The notes beneath the pieces were generated by a model. That model made no database searches. It had not been told where the DNA came from and saw only the letters and a program-made list of their open reading frames with translations. Positions 1,285-60,799 of a DNA stretch of 64,000 nucleotides are shown here, piece by piece. Origin of the DNA: an uncultured Bacteroidota bacterium. GTDB lineage: Bacteria > Bacteroidota > Bacteroidia > Bacteroidales > SZUA-534. The stretch is from positions 17,667 through 81,666 of the forward strand of contig CAMJCK010000008.1 in the NCBI GenBank assembly GCA_946404125.1, written 5' to 3'. Position numbers and translations under genes: made by a program. Positions within the stretch are counted from its first letter, which is position 1. The number at the start of each line of letters is the position of its first letter.

Positions 1285-4200
1285 ATGAAACGCCTATTTA
1301 TAACCCTCACATATATAGTGCTCGCCATAGCAAACGCTTTGGCCGCAGACAATTTTGATTTTTCAGCAGTTTGCAGTAGTGGACAAACTTTGTATTACAC
1401 AATTGTGGCGCCTAATACAGTGGAGATTACTTATCCAAATAAAAATGCTTCTTCTTGGGAATATAAATATAGCGGCTATTCCAAGCCAGATGGACATTTA
1501 ACAATTCCAGACACTATAATAAATAATGCAGTAAAATATACTGTCAAAAGTATAGGTATGGATGCGTTCCAAAGTTGCACAGATATAATATCGGTGAAGA
1601 TTCCGAATACAGTTACCGACATTGACTATGAAGCATTTGCTACTTGCGAAAATCTTAAATTAATAAGTATTCCTAAAACTGTTAATTTTATCAATTATCA
1701 AGCGTTTAATAACAATGATATAACCATTTATTGCGAACTTGCAAGTCAGCCTCAAAATTGGTTTACTAGTTATAATTCCTACGGTACATTGTATACGGAT
1801 TGGCATAGTAAGAAAGGAACTGTTGTTTGGGGAATTAAAGCATCAATTACAGATGATTTCGTGTTCTATGCCACTGATACTATTTCTCGGCAATGTGGTG
1901 TGTATAAATATGTTGGCAATGATACTGATGTTGAAATACCTTCGAAGGCTTATTTTGATGGGAATGAGTATGCGGTTACGAGCATTGGTTACGAAGTGTT
2001 TGATGATTACACAGACTTGTTATCTGTAACCATACCTGAATCTGTTAGAAGTATTGACGAAAGTGCATTTCGTGGTTGTACGGGTTTGACTTCTATAACC
2101 CTACCAGATTCTTTGGTTAGTATTGGATATTCAGCATTTTATGGTTGTACGGGGCTTACAACAATAGATATTCCTAATTCGGTTACTACTTTTGATGATT
2201 ATGCTTTTGCGGAATGCACAGGTTTGACATCGGTAACTCTTCCTGATTCAATAACAGAAATTAGTCGGTGTATGTTCGAGAATTGTGAAGGGTTAACATC
2301 TATGATAATTCCAAATACCGTAACAAAAATCAAAGAAGAAGCGTTTTCGGGGTGTTCTAATCTTAAATTGGTTATTATTCCGAAATCTGTTGCGGCTATA
2401 GAGCGAATTGCCTTCAATTCCAACAAAATAACGTTTTATTGTGAGCACGAGCCTACCCCCGATTATTGGGTGAGCAACTGGAATTGCGGTAAGGGTACAG
2501 TTTTTTGGAACGTAGAACTCAAAGGCGATTATATTTTCCGTGTAACAGACGCATCATCGCATCAGGCTGAAATTCTGAAATATATCGGCGCGGACAGTGT
2601 TTTGTCGATACCAGCAAGCGTAACGTTCGACGGCACAGCGCACACGGTTGCAACCATCAGTGAATCAGCGTTTAAAGGGTGCGAAAACCTGAAAGCGGTA
2701 ACCATCCCCGATGTGGTTGAGAACATTGGCGATAGTGCTTTCTACGGTTGCAACCATCTGCCGCAGATAGTAATTCCCAACTCGGTGGCCGCAATGGGAC
2801 AAGGTGCGTTTGGCGGTTGCAGCAGCCTCACCATCTACAGCAATGCCACAAGCAAACCAAAACAGTGGTCAACAGATTGGAATCCAGACGATTACCCTGT
2901 TGTTTGGGGAACAAAAATCGATGGTGATTTCTTCTATCAGATAACAAATGCCGCGCGGCGCGAGATTTCAATCGTGAAGTACGCAGGCAAAGATTCAGTT
3001 TTAGTAATTCCTTCAAAACCAATTATAAACAGCCTTGAATGCAGCATAACACGCATTGGCGATTATGCTTTTGCCGAATGCGACAGTTTGGTGCGAATCA
3101 CCATTCCAAACTCGGTGCAAAACATTGGTGATTATGTATTTGCGGGTTGTTCGCGGCTGTCGGAGGTTGTGATTGGTTCGGGTATTGCGAGCATCGGCGA
3201 GTCGGCTTTCAGCGAGTGCGGTGCTGTTAGTTCAATCAAAATCGGTAACGCAACGCCGCCAACTATTTCAGAATCAACGTTTGAGGATGTGGATAAGTGG
3301 ATTACGATTGATGTGCCGTGCACCAACATCGATGCGTACAAGGACAGTGATTATTGGAGCGATTTTGTGAATTACTACGAGCCGCCAGTGTACGCCGTCA
3401 CGGTGAAGGCGGAAAACAGCAAATGCGGCAATGTTACTATTACTCGGCAACCCACGTGCGACAATAATCAGGCGGTTTTCGAGGCCACAAGCAACACGGG
3501 TTTTGCGTTTGCCCATTGGAATGATGGTAACACCGAAAATCCGCGTACGGTGGCCGTGACAAAAGACACATCATTCACTGCGTTTTATTCAGCGGCTGAA
3601 GTCAGTGTTTCGATAACTACTGCTAATGCTGTGCAAGGTTCGGTGACAGAATTGTCGCGCATTCACTATTATTCTGATGAAATAACTGTTTCGGCCACAG
3701 CCAACTACGGCTACCATTTTACCCGTTGGAGCGATAGCGTAACCGCCAATCCTCGCACAATTGTTTTGCGTGGCGATACTGTCATTCAAGCGCAATTTGC
3801 TGCAAACCAATATGCTATAATGGTTGGTTGCAACAATGTGGTGTTGGGTTCGGTGAGCGGTGGCGGAACATTCGATTATCTTGCAACAGCCTCAATATCA
3901 GCCACTGCCAACCACGGATATGCTTTTAAGCAGTGGAACGATGGCAACTATGACAACCCGCGCCGCGTGACCATAACGCAAGACACGGCGTTCACGGCCG
4001 TTTTTGTACCTGATGAGGTTAATGTTGAGGTGGTTTCGGCCGATACTGTGCGCGGCAAGGTCTCCGCACTATCGGGAACGCATCATTATTACGATACGAT
4101 AACCGTCAGTGCCACAGCCAACTACGGCTACCATTTTACCCGTTGGAGCGATAGCGTAACCGCCAATCCTCGCACAATTGTTTTGCGTGGCGATACTGTC

Positions 4201-13330: not shown

Positions 13331-13346
13331 TTAATTCAATCCTTCA

Positions 13347-13364
13347 TCCCGATAGCTATCGGGA
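13347..13364. repeat. REP-like 18-bp palindrome TCCCGATAGCTATCGGGA (copy 1)
   Basis: A perfect palindrome, bracketed by an 11-bp direct repeat ATTCAATCCTT (13334-13344 and 13373-13383). The right copy overlaps the MBL gene stop codon. Confidence 0.7.
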
Positions 13365-13370
13365 CTTCAA

Positions 13371-14135
13371 TCATTCAATCCTTATCTTCAGTCCATCGTA
13401 AGCAGGCAGAACATTGTCGGGCAGAATCTTTATAAGTTCGTCATACACAGGTATTTTGTGACTGATGTGCGTCAAGTAGGCGCGGCGCGGTTTGAGTTTG
13501 CCGATGATGTCGAGCGCTTCGCCAAGACTCAAGTGCGCGGGGTGCTGCTCAATACGCAAAGCATTGATAACCAGGGTGTCAAGACCTTGCAGTTTGGCCA
13601 TCTCGCTGTCGGCGATGGTTTTGGCGTCGGTGATGTAGGCGAACTGCCCGATGCGGAAGCCCGTGGTGGGCAGCGTGCCGTGCAGAACGTTTATCGGTGT
13701 AACCGTAATACCTTGAACATCAAACGGTTCGTTGCCAATCGGATGAAGTTCAATCTGCGGTGCGCCAGGGTAATGCGGCTCGCTGAAGGCGTAGGCGTAC
13801 TCGCGGCGGATGGTGTCGGTGACGCGCTGTTGGGCATAGAACGGAATGGCGCGGCGCATTATGTAATTGAAGGTTCGTATGTCGTCGATGCCAGCGGTGT
13901 GGTCTTTGTGCTCGTGGGTTATTAGCACGGCGTCAATCTGCGTAAAGCCTTCGCGCAGAGCCGATTGCCGCAGGTCGGGCCCAGGGTCGATGAGCAGATG
14001 GCGCCCTTCAGTTTCAATGTAAACCGAACTGCGCAGCCGCTTGTCTTTCGGGTTAACCGACTGACACACTGCACATTTACAGCCCACAATTGGTATCCCG
14101 TGCGACGCCCCCGTGCCTAAAAAAGTTACGTTCAT
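13371..14135 (-). CDS. MBL-fold metallo-hydrolase (PhnP-like)
   Basis: HEHKDHTAGIDD (HxHxDH) motif. An N-terminal Cys cluster CKCAVC is also typical of this subgroup. Confidence 0.8.
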   Translation of the reverse strand: MNVTFLGTGASHGIPIVGCKCAVCQSVNPKDKRLRSSVYIETEGRHLLIDPGPDLRQSALREGFTQIDAVLITHEHKDHTAGIDDIRTFNYIMRRAIPFYAQQRVTDTIRREYAYAFSEPHYPGAPQIELHPIGNEPFDVQGITVTPINVLHGTLPTTGFRIGQFAYITDAKTIADSEMAKLQGLDTLVINALRIEQHPAHLSLGEALDIIGKLKPRRAYLTHISHKIPVYDELIKILPDNVLPAYDGLKIRIE

Positions 14136-38271: not shown

Positions 38272-38379
38272 TCTGTCAATCGATTAATAATTCAAAAAGG
38301 CGATGCGTGAGTGTCGCTTTTTTTGTGCGTATCAGTTTCCGTTTTCCGTTTATCTTTGCGGCGCTTTAAAAACAGACCG

Positions 38380-59355: not shown

Positions 59356-59383
59356 GGGGGGGGGCGCGGGCGGGGCGCTAGGG
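59356..59383 (+). repeat. G9 homopolymer followed by GGG, GGGG, GGG tracts (G-quadruplex-capable)
   Basis: GGGGGGGGGCGCGGGCGGGGCGCTAGGG lies immediately after the giant gene's terminator. A second G-rich unit is at 59433-59465. The 17-mer TAGGG(C/T)GCAAGGCTGGG recurs at 59379 and 59448. Confidence 0.8.
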
Positions 59384-59470
59384 CGCAAGGCTGGGCGTTT
59401 TTTTTTGCAGGGCGGCTGGGGAGATCCTTCTGCGGGGCGGGTGGCGTTAGGGTGCAAGGCTGGGGCAGTT

Positions 59471-59496
59471 TTTGAATTGCGATGACGCAATTCAAA
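59471..59496. repeat. Perfect hairpin TTTGAATTGCG-ATGA-CGCAATTCAAA
   Basis: An 11-bp perfect stem with a 4-nt loop, upstream of the RayT-like gene's promoter. Confidence 0.8.
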
Positions 59497-59552
59497 GGGA
59501 CAATCAGAGGGGAAGTGGTTCATTTAGTTAGAAAAGTGCTACATTTGTAATG

Positions 59553-59608
59553 TTTGTCCGCGTCGTCGCGGACAAAGCCACGCGGACAAAGCCACGCGAA
59601 CGAAACCG
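59553..59608 (+). promoter_or_regulatory. Hairpin TTTGTCCGCG-TCGT-CGCGGACAAA overlapping a 14-bp tandem repeat (CGCGGACAAAGCCA twice plus a degenerate third copy), in the predicted 5' leader of the RayT-like gene
   Basis: A -7 box TACATTTG at 59540-59547 places the transcription start at about the hairpin foot. The tandem units are at 59567-59580, 59581-59594 and 59595-59608. Confidence 0.6.
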
Positions 59609-59650
59609 CGCTGGCAAAACACACTTTCACAAGCAAGAGGCATAGCAAAA

Positions 59651-60799
59651 ATGGCGGACAATACAGAACACAACAGACCTAAGTTTTGGAACCCCACCGA
59701 CACAAGCCGCCATCACCGAATGAACGACTGGGATTACTGCAACCGCGCCATTTACCATATTACGCTTGCCGTTGCCGGGCGGCGGCACTTGTTCGGCGAG
59801 TTGGTGGGCGACAGTGCCGATACTGCCCGGATAGAGCTCAATGAATTTGGGGTTCGGGTTTATCGGAAACTGTACGGCACACCGCAATTCTACGCGCCCA
59901 AAGGGTACTCTCTGCAACTCCTTGCCCTGAAAGTTATGCCCGACCATCTGCACTTTGTTATTTTCGCAAAGTCGCGGTTGCCCAAACCTATCGGGAACGT
60001 AGTTCGAGGTTTCAAGAGCGGTTGCTCCTCTCTTTTCAGGCGCACGTATGCCAAATGTGCCGAAAACGCCCAACAGCCAGAGCATACGCCGCCAGTGCTT
60101 GCCGGTTTTGTTCCGGTTTTTGAGGCGAATGGCGGTAGCATCTGGGAGAAGATACCGGCCGGCTATCACGAGCGCATTCTTTTCGGAAAAGGCCAGCTCC
60201 AAAATATGATAAACTACGTTCGCGACAACCCGCGCCGGCTGTGGCTGAAGAGGCATAATCCGGAGCTTTTCAGGCTGCACCGGCAGACCGAGGTGCGCGG
60301 ACTGACGTTCACCTCGCTGGGCAACCATTTCCTGCTCGACTGGCCGGTCAGGCAGTTGGTGGAGATGTCGCGCAGCGCCAGCGAGGAGCAGATTGAGGAG
60401 CGGCTGCAGGAGGTTTGGGCGGAGGCCCGCAGCGGGGCGGTGACCTACACGGCGGCCATCAGTCAGGGCGAGAAGCTGATTGCCTGCACCTTGCGCGAGC
60501 AGGGTTTTCCGCTGGTTATTCTTCTTTGCGATGGCTTCCCGGCCGCCGATTTGCCCGAGGCGCGCTATTTCAAGCCCGGCGGCCCATATTTTGAGGCTTG
60601 CGCCGATGGACGGTTGCTACTTTTGGAGCCGTCGGAGGCGGTGTTTCAGACGCCGGCCATTGTTGAGGCCACCAACCGCGCACTCCTTCAGAAATCGGAG
60701 GCCCGCCACACCAGTTATTCCGGGCTTGCCGGCGATTCGCAGCGCTACCGTTTTGTGGCGCTGAACCAGATTGGAAGATGGTTGGCAGAGGAGAGATGA
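59651..60799 (+). CDS. RayT/IS200-like HUH (Y1) transposase-fold protein fused to an unassigned ~170-aa C-terminal domain
   Basis: IYHITLAVAGRRHLF, MPDHLHFVI (the HUH motif), VVRGFKSG, and IWE...GYHERILF....L.NMINYVRDNP (catalytic Tyr context YxxxNP) follow the order of REP-associated tyrosine transposases. The C-terminal half has no transposase counterpart. Confidence 0.65.
   Translation: MADNTEHNRPKFWNPTDTSRHHRMNDWDYCNRAIYHITLAVAGRRHLFGELVGDSADTARIELNEFGVRVYRKLYGTPQFYAPKGYSLQLLALKVMPDHLHFVIFAKSRLPKPIGNVVRGFKSGCSSLFRRTYAKCAENAQQPEHTPPVLAGFVPVFEANGGSIWEKIPAGYHERILFGKGQLQNMINYVRDNPRRLWLKRHNPELFRLHRQTEVRGLTFTSLGNHFLLDWPVRQLVEMSRSASEEQIEERLQEVWAEARSGAVTYTAAISQGEKLIACTLREQGFPLVILLCDGFPAADLPEARYFKPGGPYFEACADGRLLLLEPSEAVFQTPAIVEATNRALLQKSEARHTSYSGLAGDSQRYRFVALNQIGRWLAEER

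Follow-up and report, generated by a model that had tools for sequence, protein, structure and literature searches.

A RayT-like HUH nuclease joined to a putative DprA-like domain in gut and rumen Bacteroidales

HUH/Y1 enzymes drive single-strand transposition (IS200/IS605), the spreading of repetitive extragenic palindromes (REPs) and protein-DNA tagging tools, and DprA is dedicated to loading RecA onto incoming single strands. A gene at positions 59651 to 60799 (+ strand) of a 64,000-nucleotide stretch from an uncultured Bacteroidales bacterium (assembly GCA_946404125.1, contig CAMJCK010000008.1, positions 17,667 to 81,666; hereafter the window) raises the question of whether these two kinds of protein have been joined in a single polypeptide and, if so, whether the gene belongs to a mobile element or to the resident gene content of its host. 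A sequence-only reading of the locus had proposed that the N-terminal ~215 amino acids (aa) carry the ordered motifs of REP-associated tyrosine transposases (RAYT or RayT), and that the remaining ~170 aa resemble, weakly and by eye, the Rossmann core of DprA/SLOG proteins. On balance, we favor the view that the window gene encodes a resident, low-copy, RayT-like hairpin nuclease equipped with a DprA-like domain that holds single-stranded DNA (ssDNA). The solid part of this view consists of both folds, a conserved His-x-His pair and tyrosine, a fixed architecture, a copy number unlike that of an insertion sequence (IS), synteny, and the linkage of the nuclease core to upstream hairpins in a cassette.

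Re-reading of the window returned the open reading frame (ORF) as it had been given, together with every string previously quoted from its translation (PDHLH, NYVRDNP, VEMSRSAS, AISQGEK, PLVILLCDGFP and GRLLLLEP). The features of the coding region are as follows.

59651..60799, + strand: complete ORF, 382 aa plus stop codon, specifying a two-domain Y1 HUH / DprA-like protein (full-length homologs in >2,000 clusters)
59738..60265, + strand: Y1 HUH nuclease domain, residues ~30-205, RayT-like, class 2 Y...NP type (AlphaFold2 pLDDT ~90, Foldseek, weak Pfam and NCBIfam matches)
59939..59953, + strand: HUH motif PDHLH, residues 97-101 (His99, His101; both ≥90% conserved)
60056..60130, + strand: short variable linker between HUH core and Tyr helix, residues ~136-160 (alignment of homologs)
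60212..60232, + strand: Tyr motif NYVRDNP, residues 188-194 (Tyr189 and, at Y+4, Asn193; both invariant)
60257..60796, + strand: C-terminal DprA-like domain, residues 203-382 (AlphaFold2 model, Foldseek, hhalign)
60368..60373, + strand: Ser240-Arg241, loop that follows core strand 1, aligned to DprA motif 1 (≥90% conserved; hhalign)
60458..60475, + strand: ISQGEK, loop and helix after the second core strand with invariant Glu274, aligned to SG.A.GID (hhalign)
60743..60766, + strand: RYRFVALN helix with nearly invariant Arg365 and Asn372, aligned to R-N-R-I-I-A (hhalign)

A search of 5.8 billion proteins with the window protein identified 2,119 clusters at E ≤1e-3. Among the 120 clusters listed, proteins were 360-497 aa long, shared 50-97% identity with the query and mostly aligned to it over nearly their full length, and the named members among the matches listed came mainly from Prevotella and other Bacteroidales under the labels 'hypothetical protein', 'transposase' and 'RayT'. 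Using a 40%-identical paralog as a second query added 1,181 further clusters, Paludibacteraceae included. As both halves are kept in more than 2,000 protein clusters, the two-part architecture is neither a chance ORF nor a gene-calling artefact. When the C-terminal 180 aa alone were used in an exhaustive HMMER search, 494 representative clusters were found; in the best 150 of these the domain sits at the C-terminal end of proteins that are mostly 250-500 aa in length, and the HUH and Tyr motifs were present in every inspected member that carries it. Distant members match only positions 1-128 of this query, marking residues 203-330 as the conserved core. In an alignment of 63 diverse family sequences with a mean column identity of 19%, Y189, N193, G224, E274 and C317 are invariant, and H99, H101, S240, R241, R365 and N372 are among the positions conserved at 90% or more, indicating that the catalytic residues and specific C-terminal residues are under selection. 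No model in Pfam, NCBIfam, PHROGs or PADLOC matches the C-terminal half (residues ~205-382). We lean towards regarding the architecture as that of a large family of gut and rumen Bacteroidales in which a Y1 nuclease is permanently fused to a DprA-like domain.

Two proteins depart from this pattern. A 1,082-aa metagenomic protein (P0282) contains Condensation and phosphatidylserine decarboxylase domains together with a complete Y1-DprA-like unit, and may represent either a real fusion or a gene-calling artefact. The product of a 171-aa gene (P0300), a candidate for a free-standing C-terminal domain, truly lacks the nuclease part; since its closest relatives carry both domains, we set it aside as a probable truncation.

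The assignment of the N-terminal half to the RayT-like nucleases, made earlier from its ordered motifs, is borne out by both structure and conservation. Pfam Y1_Tnp (PF01797) matches the protein with an E value of 1.5e-4 and 22.3 bits, 0.7 bits under its gathering score of 23, and matches 36 of the 63 diverse family members at E ≤10 (best 3.2e-7). The best NCBIfam match, REP_Tyr_transpos (NF047646), covers residues 86-196 at E 5e-8 with 32.9 bits and does not reach its cut-off of 80. Sequence searches of the PDB with the single sequence and two profiles gave weak Y1 matches and nothing for the C-terminal half. A template-free AlphaFold2 model has a predicted local distance difference test score (pLDDT) of ~90 over residues 30-170, and places the HUH motif in strand 99-106 and Y189 and N193 with helix 182-191. 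In a Foldseek comparison of this half with the PDB, ranks 1-30 were occupied by Y1 transposases only, all with a probability of 1.0 (E 1.2e-5 to 8e-4 for ranks 1-17, and up to 1.5e-2 for the remainder); these include ISDra2, S. tokodaii, IS200, IS608 and E. coli RayT (4er8). Short Y1 proteins common in Bacteroidota match the N-terminal part with E values down to 2e-30, and in the rest of Bacteroidota the first ~175 profile positions alone are matched, by ORFs of ~190-220 aa; the N-terminal half is therefore kin to the ordinary short RayT-like proteins of this phylum.

The linker that separates the HUH core from the Tyr helix grows in homologs to up to ~100 aa with GENAA/GVHG-type repeats. In the homolog of Prevotella sp. 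E15-22 (P0074, L042:6401-6614), the long low-complexity insert is an in-frame tandem repeat of 60 bp in 3 copies with 95% matches, a sequence pattern which suggests that replication slippage changes linker length. Elsewhere in the source genome, contig C52 (7475-8056) carries an ordinary short Y1-only RayT-like gene with the motifs NHIH, WQ and YIEHNP, which lies near subclass 2.6 in the scheme of Quentin et al., and directly downstream of that gene lies an inverted-repeat cluster (CACAACATTGTGT... / ...ACAATGTTGTGTG).

The C-terminal half was modeled from an alignment of 64 non-redundant sequences taken from both protein searches and headed by residues 203-382. Template-free AlphaFold2 returned a model with a pLDDT of 93.8 and a predicted TM score (pTM) of 0.89, consisting of a beta-hairpin, a four-strand alpha/beta Rossmann-like core (~residues 232-330, with strands at fragment positions 32-35, 62-65, 86-89 and 120-125) and a helical tail. 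With a shallow alignment of 30 sequences at 57% identity or more the model was unusable (pLDDT 40-68), and both the model and the profile alignment described below improved only once the subfamily of the paralog on contig C9 and distant representatives were included. Foldseek placed DprA-family structures at all of ranks 1-13 against the PDB (probability 0.80-1.0, E 5e-3 to 0.2). The best match was ShosA (8zva; E 5e-3, probability 1.0), and these ranks also held H. pylori DprA (4ljk, 4ljl, 4ljr, 5mll) and S. pneumoniae DprA (3uqz); R. palustris DprA followed at rank 26, and matches outside the DprA family all had probabilities below 0.3. ShosA is a DprA-like antitoxin and a component of a defense system, and its binding of ssDNA has been shown experimentally (PMC11961720), as has that of DprA (PMC3950713). 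Given these modest scores, the likeness is one of the core and falls short of a close match.

Comparison of profiles pointed in the same direction. With hhalign, the 63-sequence family profile aligned colinearly to a Bacteroidota DprA profile over 149 columns with a score of 31.6 (P 6.6e-4, probability 27%), exceeding all 81 control profiles: the reversed profile scored 14.8, and the top scores among 40 column-shuffled and 40 block-shuffled profiles were 22.2 and 27.2, respectively. The segments paired by this alignment, given as family and then DprA, are the following.

C/M-S-R with G-T-R (motif 1)
V.VSp.IS.GEK with IVSG.A.GID
PLIvL..GF with TiAVL..G
GRLLlLaP with GalvSE
R..c.a with R-N-R-I-I-A (the Arg of motif 2)

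The pairing that had been drawn by eye (MSR with G-T-R, VT.TAAIS.GEK with VSG.A.GID, PLVILL..GF with TiAVL..G, and GRLLLLEP with GalvSE.P) is thereby recovered. The DprA domain is defined by the motifs G-S/T/A-R and F/L/Y-x-x-R-N/D, and both arginines are required for ssDNA binding, that of motif 1 being the key binding residue in H. pylori DprA (Wang et al., PMC3950713). In the family, Ser240-Arg241 align to G-T-R, with Met, Cys or Ile in place of the motif 1 Gly. We read the C-terminal half as a DprA-like Rossmann domain (SLOG-type), both reduced and highly divergent, that has kept both arginines and in which the motifs are incomplete; it is likely DprA-like in fold and ligand, yet stands outside PF02481. 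A six-frame search of the source genome with PF02481 found canonical DprA on contig C46 only. The proposed parallel with the DprA/SLOG core has thus held at the level of fold and profile alignment, with 13 DprA-family proteins as the best PDB neighbors, but as a remote relationship without a match at the level of hidden Markov models, with TM scores of ~0.45 and partial motifs. Likewise, structure and profile comparison agree with the claim that this half is foreign to the RayT family, placing it neither in an unrelated fold nor as an extension of RayT.

How the fusion relates to described systems is best judged against the classification of Quentin et al. 2018 (PMC6006769), who distinguish 12 subclasses of TnpA-Y1 proteins, including the RAYT-like class 2. 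RAYT/TnpA-REP proteins such as E. coli YafM (4er8) share with the window protein the Y1 HUH fold, the HUH motif and a Tyr with N-P at positions +4/+5, and they share low copy number, divergent paralogs, chromosomal residence, patchy spread and adjacent hairpins. However, RAYT proteins are 150-240 aa long, whereas the window gene specifies ~380 aa with a 180-aa DprA-like domain seen in none of the 12 subclasses; its motif set (DHLH / W[EQ] / Y[VI][RK]DNP) fits no subclass of the published table, its score against NF047646 falls far below the cut-off, and no REP/REPIN family of the dispersed kind is linked to it. The TnpA proteins of IS200/IS605 elements (ISDra2 2xma, IS608 2vjv, IS200 2f4f) are the best structural matches to the N-terminal domain (E ~1e-5, probability 1.0), with the same predicted chemistry of an HUH metal site plus Tyr and likely ssDNA hairpin substrates. 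Unlike them, the window gene has no multiple identical copies, no right-end hairpin that could be found, no tnpB and no Y...Q (having Y...N instead), carries an extra C-terminal domain, and falls just short of the Pfam gathering score. DprA/Smf and ShosA, the sole consistent structural neighbors of the C-terminal domain, share with it a colinear profile, Ser-Arg at the position of G-S/T/A-R and the Arg of motif 2, and they differ in the strands and motif positions considered below; moreover, the SAM or winged-helix domain of DprA is absent here, the domain is fused to a nuclease, and canonical DprA is encoded separately in the same genome. The nearest precedents in layout are subclass 2.1.2, with a Bac_DnaA_C-like domain, and subclass 2.3, with a long subclass-specific tail (PMC6006769). 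These share a Y1 core with a conserved C-terminal accessory, a lack of REP association and behavior unlike that of an IS, but with a DnaA-C-like accessory, other HUH/Tyr motifs and a distribution in proteobacteria, where the family described here has a DprA-like accessory and occurs in rumen and gut Bacteroidales.

Full-text literature searches pairing DprA with HUH or transposase, and SLOG or DprA with IS200, found no description of such a fusion, and neither did a search of the literature on RAYT with Bacteroidetes. We would class it as a Y1 HUH subclass with a DprA-like accessory and without a Pfam or NCBIfam model. If true, the permanent fusion would be the first hint of a RayT-type nuclease with its own ssDNA-capture or recombinase-recruiting module, and would offer a concrete handle on the roles of domesticated Y1 nucleases in cells. 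Thousands of gut and rumen Bacteroidales sequences preserve the fusion, and a domain model would correct their present annotations, 'transposase', 'RayT' and 'hypothetical protein'.

Which DNA the nuclease might act upon is suggested by the region upstream of the gene, where two perfect hairpins lie 75-180 bp from the start codon. The features of this region are as follows.

59374..59473, + strand: two G-rich direct repeats, GGCG[C/T]TAGGG[C/T]GCAAGGCTGGG..TTTTT, at 59374-59404 and 59443-59473
59458..60185, + strand: exchangeable cassette holding both hairpins, the predicted promoter between them, the leader and codons 1 to ~178 (HUH core)
59471..59496, + strand: hairpin 1, TTTGAATTGCG-ATGA-CGCAATTCAAA, perfect 11-bp stem (ssDNA fold -11.7 kcal/mol, z -8.1)
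59540..59547, + strand: predicted promoter -7 box TACATTTG, between the hairpins (fits TAnnTTTG; conserved in orthologs)
59553..59576, + strand: hairpin 2, TTTGTCCGCG-TCGT-CGCGGACAAA, perfect 10-bp stem (fold -16.7 kcal/mol, z -3.7)
59567..59598, + strand: 14-bp perfect tandem duplication, CGCGGACAAAGCCA, 2.3 copies (absent from orthologs)

Orthologs at 72-78% protein identity keep both hairpins, the remaining spacer having diverged, and the core of the hairpin 2 stem (GTCCGCG/CGCGG) is invariant among them. The consensus of the Bacteroidetes -7 promoter element is TAnnTTTG, and because the TACATTTG box precedes hairpin 2, this hairpin is placed at the predicted 5' end of the transcript. The tandem duplication offers hairpin 2 a second 3' arm (59580-59590), making two mutually exclusive stems possible. 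The second G-rich repeat abuts hairpin 1 and forms the left boundary of the unit that the window gene has in common with a decayed copy on contig C27. Within the source genome, hairpin 1 occurs in 3 copies and hairpin 2 in 2, the additional sites of hairpin 1 being the decayed C27 copy and an unrelated promoter on contig C26. Scans of public genomes and metagenomes for the hairpins returned the orthologous men-locus copy alone and no other relevant copies. The search for a right-end hairpin gave none at the 3' end of the gene or beyond it; its only candidate, a weak 9-nt inverted repeat (60740-60763), falls within conserved coding sequence, and no convincing hairpin was found within the coding sequences of the window gene or P0074. 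The earlier remark that the gene has no obvious IS ends must be tempered in view of the two strong, conserved hairpins upstream.

At the C26 site (38319-38352), hairpin 1 is followed by GGGGACAA and a -7-like box within a divergent promoter region, the flanking genes specifying a PaaI-type thioesterase (beside a MenE-like ligase) and an FKBP/SlyD-like protein. Hairpin 1 plus GGGACAA at the thioesterase promoter is conserved outside this genome, in one further Bacteroidales metagenome-assembled genome (MAG) and one metagenome contig (L064:7407-7430; L090:4602-4625).

A congeneric genome, G422, shows that the hairpins and the nuclease core travel together. The flanks of the locus are nearly identical in the two genomes, and 59458-60185 is replaced in G422 by unrelated sequence lacking both hairpins. 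The G422 ortholog (L062, G422:C8:9500-14500, gene 2607-3719) is chimeric: from GQLQNMINY on it shares 95% identity with the window protein, against only 38% over the preceding part, and the crossover lies immediately ahead of the Tyr helix. As this block swap takes both together, the HUH core and the hairpins behave like one exchangeable cassette. In G422 the flank of the C27 copy is also retained as far as 10 nt beyond hairpin 1, where it gives way to a different locus, recF; two synteny breaks between the source genome and G422 fall at the hairpin 1 edges. The hairpins are thus tied to the HUH module by their retention in orthologs, their retention in the C27 copy and their exchange with the HUH core in G422, a pattern that fits the hairpins being the cognate DNA of the module and is not proof of it.

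We next consider whether the gene behaves as a mobile element. The source genome (3.46 Mb, 99% complete) contains the window gene on contig C8, paralogs on C6 and C9, and the decayed copy on C27; the statement that the gene is single-copy in the window is correct, with the two divergent paralogs and the decayed copy lying elsewhere. The three paralogs are 32-65% identical to one another, with 32-42% identity in the N part and 44-67% in the C part, and a complete Prevotella genome carries two divergent copies. Near-identical copies were found in neither genome; the multiple identical copies with terminal hairpins that had been named as the mark of an ordinary IS200/IS605-type element were looked for in both and were absent. 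The decayed copy (C27:10537-10786) is internally deleted and has two in-frame TGA stops; it keeps the region 59445-59585 (85% identical), a piece of ~60 bp out of the Tyr-helix region and the gene's final 80 bp, and its homology stops at the stop codon.

Orthologs at 78% and 72% identity are syntenic with the window gene, in the conserved order giant surface-protein gene, window gene, Por_Secre_tail gene and ~770-aa paralog of the giant gene, such that the window gene lies between two flanking genes with a common ~600-aa module. In another species, 21 contigs were read via the glycosyltransferase neighbor of a member, and the gene stood in each of the 8 that were listed, with no empty site. 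Across nine subfamily loci the neighborhood differs each time and consists mostly of housekeeping genes, and the C-terminal domain occurs in 8 of the 16 species of the genus, in none of the family's other genera and in 3 of 201 genomes sampled across the order. Nor was a clean empty site found among the congeners; in those that lack it, the Por_Secre_tail gene is preceded by unrelated genes, and for this reason the empty-site route could not set the boundaries of the unit. Because the loci differ, the spread is patchy and the orthologs are syntenic, we conclude that repeated moves and losses of the unit have occurred during evolution, although within lineages it behaves as a resident gene, a pattern that matches the non-IS TnpA-Y1 subclasses (PMC6006769). 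The earlier suggestion of domestication is accordingly supported in part, by synteny and fixation, but the patchy spread, the decayed copy and the nine neighborhoods show that the unit has moved.

By analogy with the TnpA proteins of IS608 and ISDra2 and with E. coli RayT, the N-terminal domain of such a resident nuclease would recognize ssDNA hairpins and cut or rejoin them, the leading candidate substrates being the gene's own two upstream hairpins. The C-terminal domain may capture the single strand through the Ser240-Arg241 loop and the Arg365 helix in the manner of DprA, and may also dimerize the enzyme or pass the strand to RecA. In this scheme the faster-evolving, exchangeable HUH module would set DNA specificity, with the better conserved C-terminal module serving as a generic interface to ssDNA or to a host factor.

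A stronger variant, which we judge improbable, couples hairpin-directed cleavage to RecA-dependent homologous recombination. In this variant, a strand would be released or marked by the HUH domain at the cognate hairpin and then loaded with RecA by the DprA-like domain, which would drive exchange of the cassette at its own locus and perhaps exchange between the flanking paralogous surface-fiber genes. The en-bloc swap of hairpins and HUH core between congeners, the synteny breaks at the hairpin edges and the conserved site between two genes that share the ~600-aa module all fit this variant.

A number of observations weigh against the favored reading of a resident hairpin nuclease with a DprA-like domain. 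The relationship to DprA is remote. Foldseek E values are never below 1e-3 and TM scores are 0.41-0.47; hhalign with the shallow alignment gives no signal (probability <1%); the C-terminal domain has ~6 strands versus 9 in the DprA Rossmann domain; and neither the gene product (at E ≤10) nor any of the 63 family members matches PF02481. Of the DprA signatures, the family retains just the Ser-Arg of motif 1 and a single residue of motif 2, Arg365, the aromatic/Leu and Asn/Asp positions of F/L/Y-x-x-R-N/D not being kept. As for the substrates, perfect upstream hairpins are specific to the ortholog group of the window gene and absent from the other subfamilies, and hairpin 1, which also sits at the promoter of the unrelated thioesterase gene, could equally be an operator or another promoter element and not a nuclease substrate. 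Finally, the presence in only 8 of 16 congeners, the decayed second copy and the nine neighborhoods testify to past mobility, so 'resident' is a relative term.

These last points bear on the alternative that survives best, although we consider it unlikely: that the unit is an autonomous, minimal IS200/IS605-like transposon, with a hairpin-bearing left end of ~200 bp, an ORF and a DprA-like accessory, which moves rarely via ssDNA. The C27 copy, in which 59445-59585 with the left hairpins and the final 80 bp survive and homology ends at the stop codon, looks like an internally deleted element with both ends retained, and both the patchy distribution within the genus and the two synteny breaks at the edges of hairpin 1 would be expected of such an element. 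The nine unrelated neighborhoods, which include an insertion in a glycosyltransferase operon 17 bp from the next gene, also fit. However, neither the source genome nor the complete Prevotella genome holds near-identical copies, no right-end hairpin and no clean empty site were found, a tnpB partner is missing, and the Tyr motif is of the RayT type (Y...NP) and not of the IS200 type (Y...Q). Orthologs are, moreover, syntenic across species, with one member fixed in every contig examined.

A second alternative concerns the C-terminal domain, which might be only a generic small Rossmann-like module that dimerizes the nuclease or, in the manner of other SLOG domains, binds a nucleotide ligand, its likeness to DprA reflecting convergence of fold. 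The low scores (Foldseek E ≥5e-3, TM ~0.45, hhalign probability 27%) and the incomplete signature motifs leave room for this, and searches of a viral library gave the domain weak matches spread over SLOG/YspA, DprA-like, TIR and nucleoside deoxyribosyltransferase proteins, with one family member matching the SLOG family YAcAr at E 0.2. Nevertheless, the 13 best PDB matches are exclusively of the DprA family, and the colinear hhalign alignment over 149 columns beats every control and pairs Arg241 and Arg365 with the ssDNA-binding arginines of DprA. For a domain fused to an ssDNA enzyme, ssDNA binding is also the simplest reading, and we regard convergence as rather doubtful.

The proposal that the protein is an anti-phage or anti-plasmid defense nuclease, in which the DprA-like domain senses foreign ssDNA and the HUH domain nicks it, draws on the neighbors of some homologs and strikes us as quite improbable. 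The C9 paralog (40% identical; C9:18728-24447) lies 28 bp downstream of genes for a 923-aa McrB-like protein with EVE and AAA_5 domains and for McrC (PF10117, E 5e-56), all on the same strand, with a HIRAN-domain gene just upstream of these. The P0074 homolog adjoins KAP NTPase, HNH and helix-turn-helix (HTH) genes, a large helicase that bears a DUF559 domain precedes the P0231 homolog, and ShosA, the best structural match, is itself a defense-system component. Yet the adjacency to McrBC is not shared by the C9-type orthologs elsewhere, which sit among housekeeping genes as do the members in other contexts; the window gene lies between surface-protein genes, outside any defense island; and PADLOC gives no match. 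A conserved defense context was accordingly dropped, and a defense role is possible for some members but is not indicated for the window gene.

A REPtron is ruled out, as the upstream hairpins are not dispersed and the one dispersed palindrome of the genome is unlinked to any paralog. That perfect palindrome, TCCCGATAGCTATCGGGA, is present as 58 copies of its 12-nt core on many contigs, for example in the window (13332-13379; core 13350-13361), and lies 7 kb or more from every Y1-DprA paralog. No REP array, for which a search had been proposed, is thus tied to the gene. The palindrome, which forms a REP-like family, usually has short direct repeats on either side, for example TTCAATCC/GAAGGATT. 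Among the other repeats of the genome, CRISPR-like arrays stand at the starts of contigs C17 (34-1098) and C60 (46-654), with 15 and 9 copies, respectively, a period of 76 bp and a repeat that holds AATTGCTTTCAAAATTGTAATTTTTCGG.

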